64,000 bases of DNA, from the NCBI GenBank assembly GCA_017625675.1, contig JAGAKK010000052.1, positions 50,225 to 114,224 on the forward strand. The letters are read 5' to 3'. The notes beneath the pieces were generated by a model. It was not told the DNA's origin. It saw only the letters and a list, made by a program, of their open reading frames with translations, and made no database searches. A program made the translations under genes and the position numbers. Below, piece by piece: positions 11,898 to 62,665 of this stretch. How positions within the stretch are numbered: the stretch's first letter is position 1; the number at the start of each line of letters is the position of its first letter. Source of the DNA: Clostridia bacterium (GTDB taxonomy: Bacteria > Bacillota > Clostridia > UBA1212).

Positions 11898-13025
11898 TTA
11901 TTTTGCAAGTCCCATTATCTCCATAATCTCGCGGTTCACTATCCCCACGTCGTATTTTTCTTCGGCAATGCGCCTTGACGCCTTGCCCATGGTTTTCACA
12001 AGTTCAGGCTCTGCCGCCAACTTTTTCATTGCATTGGCCAGCGATTCCGAGCTTCTCGGCTCTACCAAAATGCCGTTTGCGCCCTTTTCAATGCAATCTC
12101 TGCACCCGGGCACATCTGTAGTTATTACCGCAAGTCCCGATGCCATCGCCTCAAGCACCGCCTTGGGCCTGCCCTCGTGGTATGACGGCAACACGAAAAC
12201 ATCGTTTTCACGAAGCAATTCCGCCACGTTTTTAGATTCTCCAAGGTACGCAACCGAACCCTCCAGAACGTACGATTCAATGTCCTCTTGTTTCATTGCC
12301 GATGGGTTCGTATCAAAACCACCCACCAACTTACATTTTACATCAAAACCGCTTTTTCGTAAAGACCTTGATGCCTCCAAATACTCAATTATTCCTTTAT
12401 CTTTTATAATTCTTGCCACCATAATAAAGCAGGTAGCACCGTTTTGCTTCTTTTCGGCCTTTTCACACGGTTTAAAAAGCTCCACGTCAACACCGGAACC
12501 GTTTACGACGATTGACTGTTGTCGTTTTACAATTCCTTTTTTAATCAAGGCCTCCCAGTCATCTTCGTTGTGAAAAAGCACCATATCAGCGTTTTTTAAT
12601 GCCTTGCGGTAGCCACTCAATATGTAGGACCTTGCTGCCGCTCGCTTTATGCCTTGCCCAGAAAACGCATACCCAAGGCCTGCTATCAAGGGGTAAAACC
12701 CGCACTTGCCATAAGCCTTAACGGCAAGACCTCCGTAAATTACCGCCTTCGTCTGATATGCAAAAACCTTGTCAGGACGTATCTCTTCAAGAATTTCTTT
12801 GTATGCCTTCAAGGTTCTTCGGTCTTCAAAAAAGTTCATTCCGTTTCTGTTCACAGGAACAGCCCTATATAAAATTCCGACCTTTCCAAAAAATTCTTTC
12901 CACTTTTCGGAAGGATCGTGGCCGACTGCAATCACCTCACAGCCTGCCTCAACGAAGGCCTTCATCATATCAAGGCGAAAAGTCACCAAAGATTCGGTTT
13001 GGCAGGATAGCACCAAAATTTTCAT
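11898..13025 (-). CDS. Glycosyltransferase family 4
   Basis: SYHEGRPKAVLEAMASGLAVITTDVPGCRD (E-x7-E). Confidence 0.85.
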   Translation of the reverse strand: MKILVLSCQTESLVTFRLDMMKAFVEAGCEVIAVGHDPSEKWKEFFGKVGILYRAVPVNRNGMNFFEDRRTLKAYKEILEEIRPDKVFAYQTKAVIYGGLAVKAYGKCGFYPLIAGLGYAFSGQGIKRAAARSYILSGYRKALKNADMVLFHNEDDWEALIKKGIVKRQQSIVVNGSGVDVELFKPCEKAEKKQNGATCFIMVARIIKDKGIIEYLEASRSLRKSGFDVKCKLVGGFDTNPSAMKQEDIESYVLEGSVAYLGESKNVAELLRENDVFVLPSYHEGRPKAVLEAMASGLAVITTDVPGCRDCIEKGANGILVEPRSSESLANAMKKLAAEPELVKTMGKASRRIAEEKYDVGIVNREIMEIMGLAK

Positions 13026-14971: not shown

Positions 14972-15029
14972 GTGGTATTGCTGTTTTTTGTGTAAATTTT
15001 CAAGGATTTTTCATTTAAGCTGGTCTAAT

Positions 15030-15058
15030 GGAGCCACAGCGTCTGACGCTGTGGCTCC
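15030..15058. repeat. REP-like hairpin repeat, copy 1 (loop TCTGA orientation)
   Basis: GGAGCCACAGCG-TCTGA-CGCTGTGGCTCC; perfect 12-bp stem. Confidence 0.9.
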
Positions 15059-15068
15059 ATATAAAAGT

Positions 15069-15094
15069 ATCGGGGTGTTCACACCCCGATACTA
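15069..15094 (-). terminator. Rho-independent terminator of the RAYT-like gene
   Basis: GTATCGGGGTG-TTCA-CACCCCGATAC, followed on the minus strand by TTTTATAT. Confidence 0.6.
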
Positions 15095-15103
15095 ACCACA
15101 TGC

Positions 15104-15856
15104 CTATGAACAGCATTGCTGTATCTTTTTACGACTCATTCCGGTCAGGCGATTTAATTGTCTGAACGATATACCCTTGTCAGATAACAGTATCAAACAA
15201 GTTCTTTTTTGCTCTTCATCAAGCTTTTGAAATTCTGTAATGTTTTTGCAACATGTCATTTGCTCAATCATATTTACTACCTTGTCATCAGTATACTTTC
15301 GTTTTATTTTCTCCGGCAAATCCAGAAACTCATCTTCGCTGTCAATATCGTTGTATTCAGCAAAACTTAACATGTCTTTGCTTCTAAAAACCGCTTCACT
15401 GTCAATATCATTTTTTCCATTAATATACGATAAAAAGCTGCTATATTTATATTCTGACACTCTGTTACACATCCCTGCTTTTACCGGATTTCTGTGTATA
15501 TACCTAACCACTCTCAACAATGATCCGGCAGTCTCAACGCATTCACTCCTAAATCTTGATTGAAACAAATGTCCCACTCGTTCATACTTGTCGTTATACC
15601 ATTTTGCATACCTGCTTTGAATACTCTGCATGCTTTGGGAAATTGTTTTTTCCTTTTCTTTTGCGAGCAAATGAACATGGTTAGACATCAGACAATATGC
15701 ATATAATTCAAAGGCCTCTTGTTTTCGATAATGTTTTACGTATTCCAGAAATTTTTCGTAATCTTCTTCCTCTTCAAAAATCCTTTGCTTATTTACCCCT
15801 CTGACCATCAAATGATAAGTACCTGTTCTACTTTTCACGCGTACGCTGTTTGACAT
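15104..15856 (-). mobile_element. IS200-like Y1 (HUH) transposase of the REP-associated tyrosine transposase (RAYT) type
   Basis: ORF 15104..15871. Start placed at MSNSVRV (ATG 15856, GGAGG 8 nt upstream). HUH motif SNHVHLL, Tyr motif RYIHRNPVKAG, and a C-terminal HTH-like tail (GISFRQLNRLTGMSRKKI). No tnpB or IS ends; flanked by REP copies. Confidence 0.8.
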
Positions 15857-15871
15857 AAGAAACACCTCCAA

Positions 15872-16059
15872 GAGCCAAAGCGTCTGACGCCGTGGCTCAA
15901 ATTTATTTTATTGTAGCAAAACAAACGGATTCGAAGCGGAACAGGGTAAAGTAGGGGGCAACCGCCAAAAATCAGCCCCTATTTTACCTCTTGAAAACCG
16001 CTTCGTTATAGTTTAAAATATATTGTAGTATTGAGCCACGGCGTCAGACGCTTTGGCTC
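15872..16059. repeat. REPIN-like inverted doublet (REP copies 2 and 3 plus an inner imperfect hairpin)
   Basis: 15872..15898 GAGCCAAAGCGTCTGACGCCGTGGCTC is the exact reverse complement of 16033..16059. The inner arms at about 15925..16005 are also inverted. Confidence 0.85.
15991..16019 (+). promoter_or_regulatory. Sigma-A-like promoter for the radical SAM/yfhO genes, lying inside the REP doublet
   Basis: TTGAAA (15991-96), 17 nt, TAAAAT (16014-19). REP copy 3 then falls in the predicted 5' UTR. Confidence 0.45.
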
Positions 16060-16081
16060 GCCGATTGAAAAGGAGCTTCTT

Positions 16082-17116
16082 ATGTCAAAAACTGTTTTTA
16101 ACGGATTTAATTCCAACGAAAAAATACTTCACCACATTGACAAGGTAAACAATTTCCTCAGCGCAGGAAAAACCTTGGTGGTGACGGAGTTTGACCTTAC
16201 CAACAGGTGCAATAATAATTGCCCTGCCTGTGTTGGCGTAAAAGAAAACGGTGCCCAGCTTACATGGGACGAGATTCAGATGATTGTGAAAGGGCTGAAA
16301 AACCTCGGCAACCGCGGCGTTATCGTCAGCGGCGGCGGAGAGCCTTTGTTGCACCCTGATTTTATCCGCACGTTGAAGCTCATAAAAGAGTCAGGCATGG
16401 AGATTGGCCTTAACAGCAACGGATTGGCGCTGAATCAGGAGATGGCGGATGCCATTGCGGAGTATTGTACGTATTTCAGAATCAGCCTTGATGCAGGATC
16501 TCCGGAGATGTACAAGCAGACCCATGGAATGCCTGCAGATTGTTATTATCGTGTGCTGGATAATATCATGTTGATGTCAGAAACGAAGAAGAGGACAGGC
16601 TCTGCGGTGTCCTTTACTGTGGGCTTCCTTACCGGTGCGGATACTGTGAAGGATATGGAAGCATTTGTGAAGGCGGCTAAGGAATACGGCGCAGGCGCGG
16701 CCCAGTTCAGACCTTTTACCGGCGATTCTACTGACATCAGCGAAGAATATAAATGACTTAAAGAAAAATATGAGGACGATGATTTCAAGGTGTTGGCGTC
16801 GCTGCAGAAATATTGCAAGTTTGAGGATATTGCGCCTCGTACCTACGACCGTTGCAGAGGAATGTTCTTCTCCACGGTGGTTACTGCGGATGCCAAGATG
16901 TTTGCTTGCCTGCATCACAGACAGGACCCCGACTACCTTATCGGCGATATGAGAGGGGAAGGAAAAACCTTGGAAGAGGTGTGGAATTCCTACAGAAAAT
17001 GGATGGTTTACGAAAGTATTGACGTGAGCATCTGCCCGCCCTTCTGCCGAAACGATAGTTTCAACGGTGTTCTGGCGGAGCTGGACAAGGATATGATCCA
17101 TAAGGAATTTATGTGA
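16082..17116 (+). pseudogene. Radical SAM protein (C-terminal Cys-rich extension) interrupted by one in-frame TGA at 16754-16756
   Basis: AAGGAG RBS, ATG 16082. CNNNCPACVG (CxxxCxxC) and SGGGEPLL motifs. ORFs 16031..16756 and 16790..17116 are in the same frame and read ...EEYK*LKEKYEDDDFKVLASLQKY... Confidence 0.6.
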
Positions 17117-22392: not shown

Positions 22393-22397
22393 GAGGT

Positions 22398-22460
22398 AAG
22401 CCACAGCCTCTGACACAGGTGAGCCACAGCCTCTGACGCTGTGGCTCACCTGTGTTGGCT
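22398..22460. repeat. REP-like repeat, copy 4 (nested/double)
   Basis: AGGTGAGCCACAGCCTCTGACGCTGTGGCTCACCT (22417..22451), with an extra upstream half-copy AAGCCACAGCCTCTGACACAGG. Confidence 0.85.
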
Positions 22461-22463
22461 ACA

Positions 22464-22578
22464 CGGAACCGAAGTGCTACTAAAAAACAAAAAATCTTAT
22501 ATTTAACGTGTTTTTTGACGTGAGTCAGGGGGCAGGTCACTGACTCATGCAAGGACAGGACCTTGACTCATGCTCTGA
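22464..22578 (-). repeat. Modular TGAGTCA-palindrome element, copy B1 (reverse orientation)
   Basis: GGAACCGAAGTGCTAC is the reverse complement of module C. Palindrome TGAGTCAGGGGGCAGGTCACTGACTCA at 22521..22547. Degenerate half-sites at 22558..22578. Confidence 0.8.
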
Positions 22579-26116: not shown

Positions 26117-26188
26117 GGAGCCACAGCGTCAGACGCTGTGGCTCCTTCATTATCAGACGCTGTGGCTCCTTCAGAGGCTGTTGCTCCC
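26117..26188. repeat. REP-like repeat, copy 5 (one full copy plus two partial tandem copies)
   Basis: GGAGCCACAGCGTCAGACGCTGTGGCTCC, then TCAGACGCTGTGGCTCC, then TTCAGAGGCTGTTGCTCCC. Confidence 0.85.
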
Positions 26189-26272
26189 TGCTGTTTCTCT
26201 TGCAAAAATATTTCTTGGCGCTGTATATGATTTCAACTTCTTGGAAATAATAACCGCGGAGGTTGATTGATT

Positions 26273-34531: not shown

Positions 34532-34621
34532 TGAGTCAGGGACCTGCCCCCTGACTCATCGGGCGCGAAGCCTTACGGGGAAACGGTTTTTAAAAAAACC
34601 AGTAGCACTTCGGTTCCGCAG
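34532..34621 (+). repeat. Modular TGAGTCA-palindrome element, copy B2 (forward)
   Basis: Palindrome TGAGTCAGGGACCTGCCCCCTGACTCA at 34532..34558. Module 2 is GCGAAGCCTTACGGGGAAACGGTTT. Module 3 is GTAGCACTTCGGTTCCGCAG. Confidence 0.85.
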
Positions 34622-34699
34622 AATACCCCCGGCGCAGCATAATTTACTTGACAAAAGTTGTTTATTATGGTATTTTTGACATTGTGAACTGAATAATGT

Positions 34700-34990
34700 A
34701 TCAAAAAGGCATTGACGGAGAAAGTAGCCGCAGTTGAAAACTACAGCGAGCAGGTGGCAGTGAAAGACCTGTGTGAGTATGGTTGCGAAGCGAAGATCAC
34801 TCCTGAGCCGCAGCGCGAAAGTTCTGTTATCGTGGTATTGGCGCCCCGAAAAAGAATTATTAGCGCCCGCCGGAATCCCTCCGTGAAAGGGACTCATGTG
34901 TTAGCATGCAGCAAGGGTGGTACAGCGAGAATATTAACGGATTTTCGTCCCGAGCGCAATTGCATCGTAGGAGACGAAGGTCCTTTTTTG
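34700..34990 (+). promoter_or_regulatory. T-box riboswitch leader (Ile specifier AUC) controlling ileS
   Basis: Stem I GGAGAAAGTAGC and CAGCGAGCAGGTGGCAGTGAAAG. Specifier GAAG-ATC-A at 34796-34798. T-box sequence AAGGGTGGTACAGCGAG at 34913..34929. Terminator GGATTTTCGTCCCG...GGAGACGAAGGTCC followed by TTTTTTG (34938..34990). TTGACA hexamers at 34648 and 34676. Confidence 0.85.
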
Positions 34991-40905: not shown

Positions 40906-41018
40906 TTGAGTCAGGTCTCCGCTTCTTTTGAGTCAGGGACCTGCCCCCTGACTCATGGGCCGCGAAGCCTTACAGGGAAACGGTTTTGCGAAAATTGGGT
41001 GGCACTTTGGTTCCGCAG
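40906..41018 (+). repeat. Modular TGAGTCA-palindrome element, copy B3 (forward)
   Basis: Half-site TTGAGTCAGGTCTCC at 40906..40920; palindrome at 40929..40955. Module 2 is GCGAAGCCTTACAGGGAAACGGTTT. Module 3 is GGTGGCACTTTGGTTCCGCAG. Confidence 0.85.
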
Positions 41019-41100
41019 ATTCGCTGAAAGAAATCACTTGATAAAACAAAAGGGAAATGATACCATTGTAGGAAAGAACTTTTGGGTGGGAGCGTTACCG

Positions 41101-45780: not shown

Positions 45781-45807
45781 GAGCCACATCCTCTGACGCT
45801 GTGACCC
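45781..45807. repeat. REP-like repeat, copy 6 (degenerate)
   Basis: GAGCCACATCCTCTGACGCTGTGACCC. Confidence 0.6.
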
Positions 45808-46768: not shown

Positions 46769-46846
46769 AAAACCACCACCTTGTTAACACACGATAATTC
46801 ACAAAAACGTTAAGTGCATTATACCCTAAGCTCTTAAAATTTGCAA

Positions 46847-46883
46847 GGGAGGAGCCACAGCGTCAGACGCTGTGGCTCCTCCC
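46847..46883. repeat. REP-like repeat, copy 7 (stem extended to 16 bp)
   Basis: GGGAGGAGCCACAGCG-TCAGA-CGCTGTGGCTCCTCCC. Confidence 0.9.
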
Positions 46884-46961
46884 TTGATTTTCGTTATATA
46901 TATGCTATACTATAGACATAGAGGAACAAATAATTTATAAAGTGGAAAGGACGGATACGAT

Positions 46962-47867
46962 ATGAAAAAATTGTACTGTATTGGGCTTGCATTATTGCTT
47001 TGCTTAAGTATTTGCGGCTGTAATAAGGTTCCCCGTGTGTCGGACAATAACGCCGAAACAATTCGCCTTGAACATTCCGGTCAATTACAGGGCGATGTGG
47101 TAGAAGTTTTTGCAGACGGACTATCTATGAAAGTTTCCAGTTGTAACACCGATGAAGTTGAATATTCCGGAGATATCGTGTACGTTATTACCGATGAAAC
47201 GGACTGGTGTGTCGAAGATGAAATTGTCGTAGATTTTTACGAAGCTAAAATACCTCATGACGAAAGTAAACCAATGACCGTTGTTGCAAACTTGATTAAA
47301 GCGCCCTCGTATGTCGCTAAGCCCATAATCTACCTATACCCCGAAGCTCCGACAGAGTGTTCAGTCGAGGTCTCTCTTAACGGGCAGTTGACATGCACAT
47401 ACCCGGATCACGGCATTAACGGTTGGCAAAAATTTACGGCATATCCTGACGGCACATTGACATTTCCTGATGGCAAGGAATATTATGCTCTTTATTGGGA
47501 AGGCCTCCAAAATACACAATGGGACTTTTCCGAGGGTTGGTGTGTACGAGGAGAAGACACTGCAAAATTTCTTGAATGGGCTCTTGCTGAGCAAGGGTTA
47601 ACACAGCGCGAGGCCAACGAGTTTATCGTTTATTGGTTGCCACTTATGCAAGACAATCCATACAACGTTATTTCCTTCCAGACCACCGCCTACACGGATG
47701 GCGCAGTTTTGGAAATATCACCAACACCCGACAGCCTCCTTCGCGTATTTATGGCGTACTACCCCTCCGATAATGAAGTGGAGCTTGCGCCTCAATCTTT
47801 TGATAACTTTACAAGACAAGGATTTACAGCAGTAGAATGGGGCGGCTGCCAGACATCAAAACCTTAA
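46962..47867 (+). CDS. Lipoprotein of unknown function
   Basis: Signal peptide with lipobox LSICGC; 301 aa. Confidence 0.7.
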   Translation: MKKLYCIGLALLLCLSICGCNKVPRVSDNNAETIRLEHSGQLQGDVVEVFADGLSMKVSSCNTDEVEYSGDIVYVITDETDWCVEDEIVVDFYEAKIPHDESKPMTVVANLIKAPSYVAKPIIYLYPEAPTECSVEVSLNGQLTCTYPDHGINGWQKFTAYPDGTLTFPDGKEYYALYWEGLQNTQWDFSEGWCVRGEDTAKFLEWALAEQGLTQREANEFIVYWLPLMQDNPYNVISFQTTAYTDGAVLEISPTPDSLLRVFMAYYPSDNEVELAPQSFDNFTRQGFTAVEWGGCQTSKP

Positions 47868-47907
47868 GTTGCCTTTTTAAAGCAGATTGTTTGACTTCTG
47901 ATTGTCA

Positions 47908-47950
47908 ACAGTCCTTGAAACCCGTTGCGGTTTTCAAGGACTGTTTTATT
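47908..47950 (+). terminator. Rho-independent terminator
   Basis: ACAGTCCTTGAAA...TTTCAAGGACTGT followed by TTTATT. Confidence 0.8.
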
Positions 47951-47951
47951 A

Positions 47952-47984
47952 GGGAGGAGCCACGGCGTCAGACGCTGTGGCTCC
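47952..47984. repeat. REP-like repeat, copy 8
   Basis: GGGAGGAGCCACGGCGTCAGACGCTGTGGCTCC. Confidence 0.9.
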
Positions 47985-48031
47985 TTGCAAATTTTAAATA
48001 ATGCGATATAATTACCGCGGTGATATTGTTT

Positions 48032-49444
48032 ATGAGAAACCCGAAAATAAATTATTTTGAAAAAAATAAAATACAAATTACTATAGCAACGTTGGTTGCG
48101 ATAATGTGCGCAGCCTTGGTGTTGGTGGGCTGTCAGAATAAGGCTGACAAAGGTGTTGCCTCTTCCTCTCCGGAAGTGACCGAAAGCCATACGCTGTTGC
48201 CAACATTTGCGGCGATACATACACCCACAATTTTGCCGACGGAAACACCTTCTCCCATGCCTACAGAAGTGCTTACAGCAACACCTGTTATCACGGGAAC
48301 GCCTACTCTTGCGCCTACAAGCACCCCTACGCCGTCGGCTACGCCAAATCCTACACCCACAATAAAGCCGACAGCTACGCCCACACAGGCACCTACCCAA
48401 GAGCCTGTTACTGCGGAGCAAATATTGTCGACAATGACCCTTGAAGAAAAAATCTACCAAATGTTTATTGTATCTCCGGAGGACCTTAGCGTAGGGCAAG
48501 GAAGTATTACCGCCTATACGGACGCTGATATGGAGTTTTTGAAGGAGCACCCGGTGGGCGGTGTGATATATTTTGAGAACAATATCGTAAATCCTGAGCA
48601 GACGAAAAATATGCTGCAGACCATCAGGAAATATTCAGAAGATAACCTTGGGTTGCCTCTTTTTGCCTGTGTGGATGAAGAGGGCGGAAGAGTTGCAAGG
48701 ATCGCCAATAACAGTGCCTTTAATGTGGAAAAGTTTGACGGAATGGGTGCTGTGGCGACAGAAGAGGAAGCATATAACATAGGAAAGACCATTGGAGCAT
48801 ATCTGGCGGAGCTTGGCTTTGATTTTGACTTTGCGCCGGTTGCAGACGTGCTTTCAAGGGAAGGAAGCGCCGTTATCGGCGACCGTTCCTTCGGCACAGA
48901 CCCCCACAGGGTGTCTGCTTTTGCCGCGGCCGCGGCAAAAGGCCTTGAAAGCAACAATATTATGAGTACGTTCAAGCATTTCCCCGGACACGGCGCCACC
49001 ACCGCCGACAGCCACTCGGACTACGCCGTTACGGAGAAAACATACGAAGAATTAAAGCAAGGCGACCTTATCCCCTTTGCCAATGCCTCAGAAAACAACG
49101 TTTCCGCAATAATGGTTGCCCACATCTCCGTACCCAACGTTATCGGCGACAACACGCCTTGTTCCCTCTCCTACAAAATGGTCACTGAAATTTTAAAGGG
49201 CGAGCTTGGCTACCGGGGCCTTGTAATCACCGATGCACTTAACATGGGGGCAATTTCGAAAAACTATACCCCTGCGGAGGCGGCGATCAAAGCTGTAGAG
49301 GCAGGAAACGACGTTCTTTTGATGCCTTTGGACCCGGAAAACACTGCAGAGGGCCTCATTAACGCCGTAAAAAGCGGCCGCATAAGTGAGAGCAGAATTG
49401 ATGATGCAGTTTTAAAAATAATTGAAGCGAAATTAAATCATTAA
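48032..49444 (+). CDS. GH3 beta-N-acetylhexosaminidase (NagZ-like) lipoprotein with PT-rich linker
   Basis: Lipobox LVLVGCQ; DEEGGRV; KHFPGHG. Start is ATG 48032 or GTG 48020. Confidence 0.85.
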   Translation: MRNPKINYFEKNKIQITIATLVAIMCAALVLVGCQNKADKGVASSSPEVTESHTLLPTFAAIHTPTILPTETPSPMPTEVLTATPVITGTPTLAPTSTPTPSATPNPTPTIKPTATPTQAPTQEPVTAEQILSTMTLEEKIYQMFIVSPEDLSVGQGSITAYTDADMEFLKEHPVGGVIYFENNIVNPEQTKNMLQTIRKYSEDNLGLPLFACVDEEGGRVARIANNSAFNVEKFDGMGAVATEEEAYNIGKTIGAYLAELGFDFDFAPVADVLSREGSAVIGDRSFGTDPHRVSAFAAAAAKGLESNNIMSTFKHFPGHGATTADSHSDYAVTEKTYEELKQGDLIPFANASENNVSAIMVAHISVPNVIGDNTPCSLSYKMVTEILKGELGYRGLVITDALNMGAISKNYTPAEAAIKAVEAGNDVLLMPLDPENTAEGLINAVKSGRISESRIDDAVLKIIEAKLNH

Positions 49445-49526
49445 AAATATTTGTAAATTAATTACAAGTTGACCTTGACACTTCTACATTAATTGGATAT
49501 ACTTCCCAAATGCAAGAACAATATTA

Positions 49527-53749: not shown

Positions 53750-53824
53750 TGGTGACCCCTACGAGAATCGAACTCGTGTCGCCGCCGTGAAAGGGCGATG
53801 TCTTAACCTCTTGACCAAGGGGCC
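53750..53824 (-). tRNA. tRNA-Glu (UUC)
   Basis: The reverse complement GGCCCCTTGGTCAAGAGGTTAAGACATCGCCCTTTCACGGCGGCGACACGAGTTCGATTCTCGTAGGGGTCACCA folds as a cloverleaf with anticodon loop CTTTCAC. CCA is encoded. Confidence 0.95.
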
Positions 53825-53828
53825 GTAA

Positions 53829-53905
53829 TGGTGGCTGCGATTGGAGTCGAACCCATGACCTTCCGGGTATGAACCGGACGCTCTAACCAACTAAGCTACG
53901 CAGCC
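53829..53905 (-). tRNA. tRNA-Met (CAU), elongator type
   Basis: Reverse complement GGCTGCGTAGCTTAGTTGGTTAGAGCGTCCGGTTCATACCCGGAAGGTCATGGGTTCGACTCCAATCGCAGCCACCA. Anticodon loop TTCATAC; no initiator features. Confidence 0.9.
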
Positions 53906-54081: not shown

Positions 54082-54813
54082 TTGGAAATAGTAATTTTAA
54101 CAGCTCTGGGCGTAGGTCTTGCCACCGTTTTTGGCAGCATTATCGGCTTCGTCCTGAAAGAAATTCCCCACCGCTTCAACGATCTCCTGCTGGGCTTCGC
54201 CGCAGGCATAATGATGGTAGCCGCCATTCTGGGTCTCATTGTTCCCGCAATGGAAGCAGGCGGCGCAACACAACTTCCCATAGTTTTTCTCGGCATAATG
54301 TGCGGAGCTTTTTGCCTCGTCCTTGCCGACAAGGCATTGCCCTTTCTTCACAACGTTGCAGGCATTAAGGGCTCCGACAACCGCGTAATGCTCCTTGTTC
54401 TCGCCATCGCAATTCACAACTTCCCCGAAGGCATTGCCGCCGGAGTAAGCTTTCTCACCGACAACACCGCAGGCGCCTTGTCCGTGGCAGGCGGAATTGC
54501 CCTCCAGAACATTCCCGAGGGCATGGTAATAATAGCGCCAATGCTATCCGCAGGCATCACCAAAAAACGAGCCTTCCTCATCGCCCTTGGCACAGGCCTC
54601 ACAGAAGTCCTTGGCACACTCCTCGGCTACACCGTAATCCAGCTTTCCGCTGCAATCCTGCCCTTTTCCCTTGCTTTCGCAGGCGGCACGATGCTCTACG
54701 TAATCTGCGACGAAATGATCCCCGAAACTCACTCCCACGGCAACGCCCGCGCCTCCACGTACGCTCTGCTGGCAGGCTTTTGCGTAATGCTGCTAATGGA
54801 TTTTTTGCTGTAA
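54082..54813 (+). CDS. ZIP-family (ZupT-like) divalent metal transporter
   Basis: TTG start after AGGGAGAG. IHNFPEGIAAG and LQNIPEGM motifs; 243 aa. Confidence 0.85.
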   Translation: MEIVILTALGVGLATVFGSIIGFVLKEIPHRFNDLLLGFAAGIMMVAAILGLIVPAMEAGGATQLPIVFLGIMCGAFCLVLADKALPFLHNVAGIKGSDNRVMLLVLAIAIHNFPEGIAAGVSFLTDNTAGALSVAGGIALQNIPEGMVIIAPMLSAGITKKRAFLIALGTGLTEVLGTLLGYTVIQLSAAILPFSLAFAGGTMLYVICDEMIPETHSHGNARASTYALLAGFCVMLLMDFLL

Positions 54814-54817
54814 AATA

Positions 54818-55016
54818 AGTCAAGAGTCCTCAAAACGAGTCAGGAACCTCAAAATGAGTCAGGAACCTCAAAATGAGTCAGGGACCTCAAAATGAGTTAG
54901 GGACCTCAAAAATGAGTCAGGGACCTCGAAATGAGTCAGGGACCTGCCCCCTGACTCATAGGGCGCAAACCCTTTCCCTGAAAGGGTTTGCGAAAAAAAG
55001 GGTGGCACTTCAGTTC
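54818..55016 (+). repeat. Modular TGAGTCA-palindrome element, copy B4 (forward) with expanded 19-bp tandem half-site array
   Basis: About six tandem units of GAGTCAGG(G/A)ACCTCAAAAT (54818..54932). Palindrome at 54932..54958. Module 2 hairpin GCAAACCCTTTC-CCTG-AAAGGGTTTGC. Module 3 GGTGGCACTTCAGTTCCG. Confidence 0.9.
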
Positions 55017-55044
55017 CGTTTGCAAAAAAAGTTGTTTTAACTAC

Positions 55045-55072
55045 TTGACGGCAACAATTTTTGTGGTATACT
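55045..55072 (+). promoter_or_regulatory. Sigma-A-like promoter for tRNA-Ser
   Basis: TTGACG, 16 nt, TGG-TATACT. Confidence 0.6.
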
Positions 55073-55087
55073 TACAAAGTAGGCTTT

Positions 55088-55179
55088 GGAGATGTACTCA
55101 AGTTGGCTGAAGAGGCGCCCCTGCTAAGGGTGTAGGTCGGGCAACCGGCGCGGAAGTTCAAATCTTCTCATCTCCGCCA
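55088..55179 (+). tRNA. tRNA-Ser (GCU)
   Basis: GGAGATGTACTCAAGTTGGCTGAAGAGGCGCCCCTGCTAAGGGTG...GGAAGTTCAAATCTTCTCATCTCCGCCA. Long variable arm; anticodon loop CTGCTAA. Confidence 0.95.
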
Positions 55180-59692: not shown

Positions 59693-59783
59693 TGAGTCAG
59701 GGGGCAGGTCACTGACTCACGGGGGCATAAAAATGAGACATTGGGAAAGAAGGTCCTTTACGCACCCGTCAATCCTGACTCAT
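59693..59783 (-). repeat. TGAGTCA-palindrome element, copy B5 (reverse orientation; modules 2 and 3 absent)
   Basis: TGAGTCAGGGGGCAGGTCACTGACTCA at 59693..59719. Degenerate half-site CCTGACTCAT at 59774..59783. Confidence 0.8.
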
Positions 59784-59793
59784 TCTATATAAA

Positions 59794-62381: not shown

Positions 62382-62516
62382 ATTATTCTCCTCACTTTCT
62401 TTCTCTTTAGTAACAAACGCCCATAAATCGCCCCAAACTGCCTCCCGGGCCAAGTGTGGTGCTTGCTTTTATTAAGAATATCACTTTTTTTTAAATTTTG
62501 CAATTATTTTTTTTAG

Positions 62517-62592
62517 TGCACCAGGGGGACAGACAACCGGTGCAGAAATTCAGCCACGAAAAACTGCACCGGTTGTCTGTCCCCCTGGTGCA
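62517..62592. repeat. 29-bp perfect inverted repeat with 18-nt spacer
   Basis: TGCACCAGGGGGACAGACAACCGGTGCAG (62517..62545) and its exact reverse complement at 62564..62592. Confidence 0.9.
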
Positions 62593-62597
62593 AACCC

Positions 62598-62638: not shown

Positions 62639-62665
62639 GAGCCACAGCGTCAGACGCTGTGGCTC
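62639..62665. repeat. REP-like repeat, copy 9 (in the predicted 5' UTR)
   Basis: GAGCCACAGCGTCAGACGCTGTGGCTC. Confidence 0.9.

Follow-up and report, generated by a model that had tools for sequence, protein, structure and literature searches.

We analysed a 64-kb window of the genome of a Clostridia bacterium (the window is the whole stretch of DNA examined, 64,000 nucleotides of contig JAGAKK010000052.1) and found that a gene for a REP-associated tyrosine transposase (RAYT; REP, repetitive extragenic palindrome) is bracketed by copies of a 27-nt palindrome, here called family A, which recurs between other genes of the window. We regard the two as probably forming a REPtron-type system, that is, a domesticated, single-copy class-2 Y1 HUH RAYT of the helix-turn-helix (HTH)-bearing subclass 2.1 together with family A as its cognate repeats. 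The identity of the enzyme, the flanking arrangement, the dispersal of the repeats, their restriction to intergenic DNA, the synteny, the conservation and the doublet are established by the observations presented here, which for copies and synteny covered the window, about 19 kb of added flank, 13 strain contigs, contigs of a related organism and the other contigs with family A (contigs are designated L001, L002 and so on).

The coding sequence 15104-15856(-) had been described in a preliminary account as encoding about 250 aa with the motifs SNHVHLL and RYIHRNPVKAG, and indeed its product has 250 residues and contains both. The protein matched Pfam Y1_Tnp with E = 1e-16, the profile comparison proposed in that account, and passed the NCBIfam model for REP-associated tyrosine transposases NF047646 (90.2 bits, cutoff 80), whereas it failed the IS200/IS605 model NF033573 (21.6 bits, cutoff 55). 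The only match in a sequence search of the PDB was E. coli TnpA-REP (4ER8), and the AlphaFold (AF2) model of the protein (pLDDT 90) also had 4ER8 as its top fold match (E = 3.7e-8, TM(target) 0.75, rmsd 2.5 Å), followed by the IS200, IS608 and ISDra2 transposases. In an alignment of 25 homologues, H62, Y119, N123 and P124 were invariant and H60 nearly so, and such invariance of the catalytic HUH and Tyr residues across the family argues for retained DNA cleavage. The Tyr motif has the class-2 signature Y---NP (as defined in PMC6006769) and is followed by a YKYSS serine motif. Judged by these sequence and model comparisons, the protein belongs with the RAYTs (TnpA-REP) rather than with the IS200 transposases, which upholds the earlier reading of the locus as a RAYT with REPs.

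The HTH-like tail noticed earlier was modelled with confidence as a five-helix domain, whose best fold match, a weak one, was domain IV of DnaA (1j1v, E 0.33, prob 0.87). Weak Pfam matches to HTH_38/23/58/7/28 were present in 5-11 of 22 family members, and a sequence-profile search of the tail against the PDB returned spurious matches only. Subclass 2.1 of the TnpA-REP proteins is defined by a Bac_DnaA_C, HTH_23 or HTH_28 tail and has been equated with the TIRYTs (Quentin, Siguier, Chandler, Fichant 2018, PMC6006769). Because it combines the serine motif with a 65-aa DnaA-domain-IV-like HTH tail, we assign the window protein to this subclass (TIRYT) by tail architecture. The architecture is a conserved one: 721 word-indexed matches were mostly about 250 aa long and 40-53% identical, with Oscillospiraceae, Ruminococcaceae, Syntrophomonadaceae and Anaerovirgula as sources where names were given, and among 862 clusters (50% identity) at E <= 1e-30 just one, P0002, was more than 50% identical to the window protein.

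Family A is a perfect 13+1+13 palindrome of 27 nt, GAGCCACAGCGTC-A/T-GACGCTGTGGCTC. When the window was searched with the 27-mer GAGCCACAGCGTCAGACGCTGTGGCTC allowing up to 3 mismatches, eight sites were found (Table 1), while none of 100 dinucleotide-preserving shuffles contained a match (0 expected). With half-sites as the query, the degenerate copy (45781-45807) and three partial copies (22398, 26158 and 26176) were added, and de novo repeat finding returned the same nine loci as the largest repeat family of the window. The nine intergenic sites of the preliminary description were therefore recovered, eight within the mismatch limit and one as the degenerate copy. All 18 family A loci, nine in the window and nine on other contigs, were intergenic when called gene starts and not the longest open reading frames (ORFs) were used, and the non-coding share of the window was about 8% by a greedy ORF map. 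As single-stranded DNA (ssDNA) the element folds into a 12-bp stem with a 3-nt loop (-14.7 kcal/mol, z = -6.8). The centre base occurs as A or T, so that both loop forms, TCAGA and TCTGA, are present as had been stated; since the element is otherwise perfectly palindromic, its "orientation" hangs on this single base. We rejected the idea that the centre base tracks gene direction: relative to the nearest gene, the sense strand shows TCAGA at all nine copies of the window, but not at about half of those on other contigs, and the base flips between strains. No Rfam match was obtained at any repeat at the gathering threshold, and the repeat cores turned up in no relevant paper in a full-text search of the literature.

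Three copies bracket the RAYT gene (15031, 15872 and 16033), as first described: one past its stop codon, one 15 nt before its start, and the partner copy of the latter. The gene lies between a glycosyltransferase cluster on one side and radical-SAM and YfhO genes on the other, neighbours that were the same in each of the 13 strain contigs that reaches past the gene, and this placement was also common to the related organism (86-90% identical over shared stretches). Neither a tnpB gene nor distinct left and right ends were found at the locus, in agreement with the earlier statement that a tnpB partner and insertion sequence (IS) ends are missing.

The two copies upstream of the gene form a doublet with 130 nt between 29-nt arms and a partly palindromic interior. 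The arms are 100% complementary to each other (29/29), whereas each REP has a 2x2 internal mismatch that lowers its own self-hairpin to -8.7 kcal/mol; the whole 188-nt unit folds to -60.3 kcal/mol (z = -11.2). It was kept in all strains and in the related organism (L017). Two inverted REPs within about 130 bp that form a long hairpin with cross-arm compensation are what Bertels and Rainey call a REPIN, and on its sequence the cross-arm compensation in 15872-16059 is a REPIN signature. Only one of the nine family A loci in the window has this form, and the rest are not doublets. The symmetry reaches beyond the repeats: ribosome-binding site (RBS), start codon and first two codons of the RAYT gene (15849-15867) and the corresponding region of the radical-SAM gene (16071-16089) are inverted copies of each other (17/19 matching), and the intergenic palindrome therefore extends into both coding starts. 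Besides the promoter-like site facing the radical-SAM gene (Table 1), inspection of the sequence pointed to a mirror-image extended -10 directed towards the RAYT gene (TGcTACAAT, the reverse complement of 15910-15918). The two sites, if active, would begin both divergent transcripts just upstream of a REP, placing the 16033 REP at the 5' end of the radical-SAM mRNA.

Outside the window, family A was carried by ten contigs of one metagenome and one Clostridia metagenome-assembled genome (MAG), and 8 of these 11 contigs had no counterpart in the window. A scan of species-representative genomes yielded one true carrier (L001), the match in L002 being a chance terminator, and no family A match was found in viral contigs; family A is restricted to a narrow lineage. 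Six short-read contigs end inside family A copies (L008, L009, L011, L012, L017 and L019), and breaks within the flanking repeats are what a multicopy sequence is expected to produce. The orthologous REPs of the window and of the related organism agreed at 128 of 133 positions (96%), compared with 635 of 833 (76%) in the rest of the same spacers (Fisher p = 4e-9). The copies at 15031, 26118 and 47957 lie 8-16 nt past an intrinsic terminator, and other window copies occupy divergent promoter regions or 5' leaders. A 1.6-kb segment (47864-49466) with a terminator, the 47957 copy and a GH3 glycosidase gene is missing in the related organism (L020).

Individual copies have changed in several ways. 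At 15031 the centre base is not the same in all strains, and at 46852 it differs from lineage to lineage. Tandem duplication accounts for the partial copies, whose junctions lie at the hairpin apex and which are polymorphic: 26153-26191 is missing in the related organism L016, and a 21-nt unit occurs in L020 only. The pair directly outside the 27-mer is G-C in 10 of 20 copies and T-A in 4 of 20, and in two copies the stem is lengthened by 8 bp of unique sequence; in the 46852 copy it is the right flank that changed, becoming the complement of the ancestral left flank. Several details of the preliminary description had to be revised. The stem at 46847-46883, given as 16 bp, has 21 bp (46844-46886); the 15030-15058 copy exists as reported, with a 16-bp stem that spans 15028-15060; the copy at 22398, called nested, is a 23-nt tandem duplication of the left arm and loop and not an insertion within an insertion; and at 26117-26188 the full copy and two partial tandem copies stand, the partials being an 18-nt tandem unit at 26153-26191. 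We would attribute the changes to replication errors templated by the hairpin, in other words to the established mechanism of template switching at quasipalindromes; nicking by the enzyme near the apex could be an alternative source.

The homologues of the enzyme carry repeats of another type. We fetched eight homologue loci, and all eight were flanked by inverted hairpins or terminal inverted repeats (TIRs) of GGGG type that recur nearby. L025, L027, L028, L030, L032 and L035/L036 have hairpins of variable stem with a conserved GGGGACGGTTC core, at 2-7 copies per locus; the core lies upstream in sense orientation in all six, with an inverted downstream copy in five (not L025). L033 has GGGGACAGG hairpins, and L034 has 25-30-nt inverted repeats with GGGGGACAGAC. 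At several loci a TTGACA-17-TATAAT promoter of the RAYT gene follows directly on the right arm of the upstream hairpin; in L027, L030, L032, L035 and L036 the upstream GGGGACGGTTC hairpin ends in or abuts the consensus -35 (…GTCTTGACA), followed by 17 nt, TATAAT and the RBS of the gene. This conserved layout of hairpin and promoter suggests autoregulation. The pattern of all eight loci agrees with the published rule of one RAYT and one repeat family (PMC6006769, PMC3733652), and since the relatives carry GGGG-type hairpins, family A is a departure within its protein family.

Two further repeat families were found in the window. Family B is a dispersed hairpin, TGAGTCAGGGACCTGCCCCCTGACTCA, i.e. 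TGAGTCAGGG-ACCTGCC-CCCTGACTCA, with a GGGGGCAGG core; it occupies five window loci and occurs once more 2 kb past the window; on L038 a copy lies at 12860-12884. Its core resembles the GGGGWSAS repeats of TIRYT genes, and a family A copy is often found less than 100 nt away, which creates composites like bacterial interspersed mosaic elements (BIMEs). Family C is present as a doublet that folds to -41 kcal/mol (z = -13), and its arm is identical to the inverted repeats (L034 1-25 and 878-907) flanking P0002, the closest RAYT homologue (53% identity), which lies on a 908-nt contig (L034) from another sample. Because of this match, the source genome probably contains further RAYT paralogues, each with its own repeat. 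Several RAYTs each with its own repeat is a known pattern in Pseudomonas and Stenotrophomonas.

When compared with known systems, the locus is closest in arrangement to the REPtron of E. coli and Pseudomonas (RAYT groups 2 and 3; subclasses 2.2 and 2.5). The Y1 HUH gene is flanked by its own short palindrome, which is dispersed between genes; the gene appears to be vertically kept and single-copy, as far as its fixed site in the strain contigs indicates; an inverted doublet with cross-arm complementarity, as in BIMEs and REPINs, lies beside it; and the protein fold matches 4ER8. Unlike the REPtron, the window system has no GTAG (or CGTC) tag at the hairpin foot, its perfect palindrome gives nearly the same hairpin from both strands, the enzyme is longer by a C-terminal HTH, the system resides in an uncultured gut lineage of the Clostridia and the copies are mostly singlets, whereas doublets predominate in the REPIN populations of Bertels and Rainey. 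Like the TIRtron/TIRYT enzymes of subclass 2.1, the protein has a Y1 core, a serine motif and a short DnaA_C-like or HTH_23/28-like tail. TIRYTs are flanked by TIRs with a GGGGWSAS core, some of which are self-complementary and moderately repeated (Di Nocera 2013, PMC3733652); the inverted repeats of the relatives are GGGGWSAS-like, families B and C of the window are of the same type, and moderately abundant, sometimes self-complementary repeat families are a feature of some TIRYTs as well. The flanks of the window gene differ from those of TIRYTs in having no GGGG and true REP-like hairpins, and automatic and manual searches had found no REP-like sequences near subclass 2.1 genes (PMC6006769). 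The TnpA proteins of IS200/IS605 elements (IS608, ISDra2) share HUH/Tyr chemistry and ssDNA hairpin recognition and offer the mechanistic template for the proposed reaction, but the window gene is unlike them in its one fixed site, the missing tnpB, identical palindromes on both sides, the class-2 Y---NP motif and the failed IS200 model.

Several observations weigh against a REPtron-type system. RAYT biochemistry comes from groups 2 and 3 only, which use GTAG (PMC8266576), and family A has no such guide, the feature that defines the biochemically studied REPs: neither GTAG nor CGTC was found at the stem foot, the bases 5' of the palindrome vary and CGTC occurs at the apex only. A GTAG 5 nt before the 16033 copy was rejected as a guide, being replaced in other strains and missing at other copies. 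The GGGG core and GGGGWSAS were not found in the own flanks of the window RAYT either, where family A stands; with neither the GTAG tag nor the GGGGWSAS of its relatives, the match of enzyme and repeat therefore rests on adjacency. With family A copies in about 8 of about 50 spacers, both flanks of the gene would be hit by chance with a probability of about 0.03. The added flank of about 19 kb contained one family B copy and zero family A copies, and no clean insertion or excision was seen, since all four family A loci comparable with the related organism were occupied in both. Moreover, repeat and gene counts come from contigs and not from a closed genome.

These points leave room for a coincidental adjacency, in which the true RAYT substrate would be a GGGG-type hairpin (family B or C) and family A would be kept by another paralogue or by host replication or recombination. 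All eight homologues have GGGGACGGTTC, GGGGACAGG or GGGGGACAGAC elements, families B and C both occur in the window, the doublet spacer contains a weak GGGG-bearing hairpin (GGTAAAGTAGGGGGC / GCCCCTATTTTACC), and A and B are often neighbours (22421/22522, and in L001, L019 and L022), all of which would fit. We nevertheless hold it to be unlikely: the B and C copies are all more than 6 kb away from the RAYT gene, family C is explained by the different gene P0002, and the related organism has retained the three A copies at the gene but not the GGGG-containing spacer, in which it shows many changes and a 14-nt deletion. Also distinctly unlikely, in our judgement, is that the 27-bp palindromes are not mobile DNA at all and serve as duplex operators of a dimeric DNA-binding protein, possibly of the RAYT itself with its HTH as regulator. 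Three copies sit just past the terminators of upstream genes (15031, 26118 and 47957), half-copies, tandem partials and stems that reach into unique flank characterise hairpin DNA and not operators, and the HUH and Tyr catalytic residues are invariant in the family; an operator function would, on the other side, agree with the perfect two-fold symmetry, with the many copies that are promoter-proximal or in 5' leaders (15872, 16033, 22421, 46852 and 62639), with the conservation of copy positions and sequence between lineages, with the HTH on the enzyme and with the upstream hairpin of the homologues, which abuts the -35 TTGACA of the gene's own promoter.

That the hairpins arose independently as transcription terminators or RNA stabilisers is very improbable. 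They are stable and some copies lie in 3' regions, but near-identical 27-mers sit at unrelated loci, which excludes independent origin; the terminator scan picks the neighbouring hairpin instead, and a terminator role was rejected because a T-rich stretch follows directly after one copy only (15872, for transcription from the left). That the locus is a plain autonomous IS200/IS605 element whose ends are the hairpins is extremely improbable: such an element would account for the Y1_Tnp domain and the flanking hairpins, but the IS200 score is far under the cutoff, tnpB is missing, the same palindrome stands on both sides in place of distinct left and right ends, the gene has one fixed syntenic site in all contigs, and solo hairpins far outnumber it. 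A broader reading, which we consider quite unlikely, joins several of these elements: gut Clostridia would harbour several co-resident pairs of subclass 2.1 RAYT and repeat, in one lineage an untagged perfect palindrome would have replaced the GGGG-type inverted repeats, the HTH would read the duplex palindrome, the repeats would have been co-opted as promoter-proximal or 5'-leader elements, and the "transposase" would double as a regulator of its own and neighbouring genes.

For the probable REPtron-type system we propose the following course, in which catalysis on the family A hairpin, the strand used, the role of the HTH and any effects on transcripts are inferred. By homology with E. coli TnpA-REP and IS608 TnpA, a dimeric enzyme would recognise the family A hairpin on ssDNA, for example on the lagging-strand template, and the ssDNA next to the hairpin would be cut and rejoined through a 5'-phosphotyrosine link at Y119. 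Such cleavage and rejoining would spread and maintain the repeats while the gene itself stays in place, and the C-terminal HTH probably adds targeting to duplex DNA or to the replication fork. Hairpins once placed would then change by local replication errors, namely centre-base flips, tandem half-copy duplications and templated stem extension into unique flank.

Further features were noted in the window (Table 1). The radical-SAM gene (16082-17116) has an in-frame TGA at codon 225 (16754-16756) in the window strain only, where 8 other strain contigs have AGA (Arg); it may reflect a pseudogene, a sequencing error or readthrough. A module of about 150 nt occurs three times (34532-34700, 40929-41100 and 54932-55080), upstream of two large genes and tRNA-Ser(GCT), and comprises, besides its B hairpin, another hairpin, a TTGACA-type promoter and a GTRGCACTTCGGTTCCG box; the module may represent a mobile promoter cassette. 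The tRNA-Ser(GCT) at 55088-55179 was found by ARAGORN, and the Rfam scan at the gathering threshold listed only two tRNAs (53750-53905). The partner hairpin of the 59694 family B copy (59735-59785, compared with L038 7061-7085) keeps its stem ends, but a 22-nt indel at its apex distinguishes two strains of 99.7% identity.

Table 1. Coordinates of the RAYT gene, the repeats and associated signals in the window (27-mer: matches with up to 3 mismatches).
Feature	Position	Strand	27-mer	Details
RAYT / TnpA-REP gene, 250 aa	15104..15856	-		HUH H60-V-H62; catalytic Tyr Y119 in Y-I-H-R-N-P; YKYSS serine motif 136-140
Codons of C-terminal five-helix HTH	15107..15301	-		residues 186-250 (65 aa); AF2 pLDDT 91
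Intrinsic-terminator-like hairpin of RAYT gene	15066..15093	-		between stop codon and REP
Family A REP	15028..15060	.	15031-15057	16-bp stem; 46 nt past RAYT stop; centre base varies among strains
REPIN-like doublet (family A)	15872..16059	.	15872-15898, 16033-16059	two REPs, inverted
Promoter-like site TTGAAA-17-TAAAAT	15991..16019	+		faces radical-SAM gene; 10/12 matches
Family A	22394..22455	.	22421-22447	23-nt tandem partial copy and full copy; 18-bp stem 22413-22455 including 8-bp unique extension
Family A	26117..26191	.	26118-26144	full copy and two 18-nt tandem partial copies (loop and right arm)
Family A, degenerate copy	45781..45807	.		half-site search, de novo repeats
Family A, 21-bp stem	46844..46886	.	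46852-46878	8-bp extension missing in L020, which has the 21-nt tandem partial copy instead
Family A	47957..47983	.	47957-47983	13 nt past terminator; edge of 1.6-kb segment (GH3 gene) missing in L020
Family A	62639..62665	.	62639-62665	31 nt upstream of SIS-domain gene start (62697)
Family B	54812..54959	+		6.9 tandem 19-nt copies of left half-site AAAATGAGTCAGGGACCTC (54812-54945, period 19), then full hairpin (54931-54959)
Family B, other copies	22522-22546(-), 34532-34558, 40929-40955, 59694-59718(-)			
Family C doublet	62516..62593	.		30-nt arms GTGCACCAGGGGGACAGACAACCGGTGCAG, inverted, 18-nt spacer

The RAYT-REP arrangement is known, and its existing framework is not overturned by this locus, whereas a subclass 2.1 enzyme beside an untagged perfect palindrome in Clostridia is a new pairing. 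The preliminary description had said that the case would be poorly described. The enzyme subclass and the repeat type had not previously been linked; the enzyme type, subclass 2.1 (TIRYT), is already catalogued (PMC6006769, PMC3733652), and Group 1 RAYTs have been noted in Clostridia, with abundant REPs and REPINs tied to Groups 2 and 3 only (Bertels, PMC5581495). The subclass 2.1 identity, the GGGG-type hairpins of the relatives, the REPIN-like doublet and the two further repeat families go beyond that description. RAYT-REP biology and biochemistry rest almost wholly on proteobacterial groups 2 and 3 with GTAG-tagged repeats. The present locus supplies the large HTH-bearing subclass 2.1 with a candidate substrate, the 27-nt perfect palindrome, its relatives supply a conserved GGGGACGGTTC hairpin abutting the gene's own promoter, and several repeat families stand side by side in one Clostridia genome. 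Such repeats break short-read assemblies of gut Clostridia MAGs. Further, it becomes directly testable how a substrate is recognised when no GTAG guide is present and what the HTH does.

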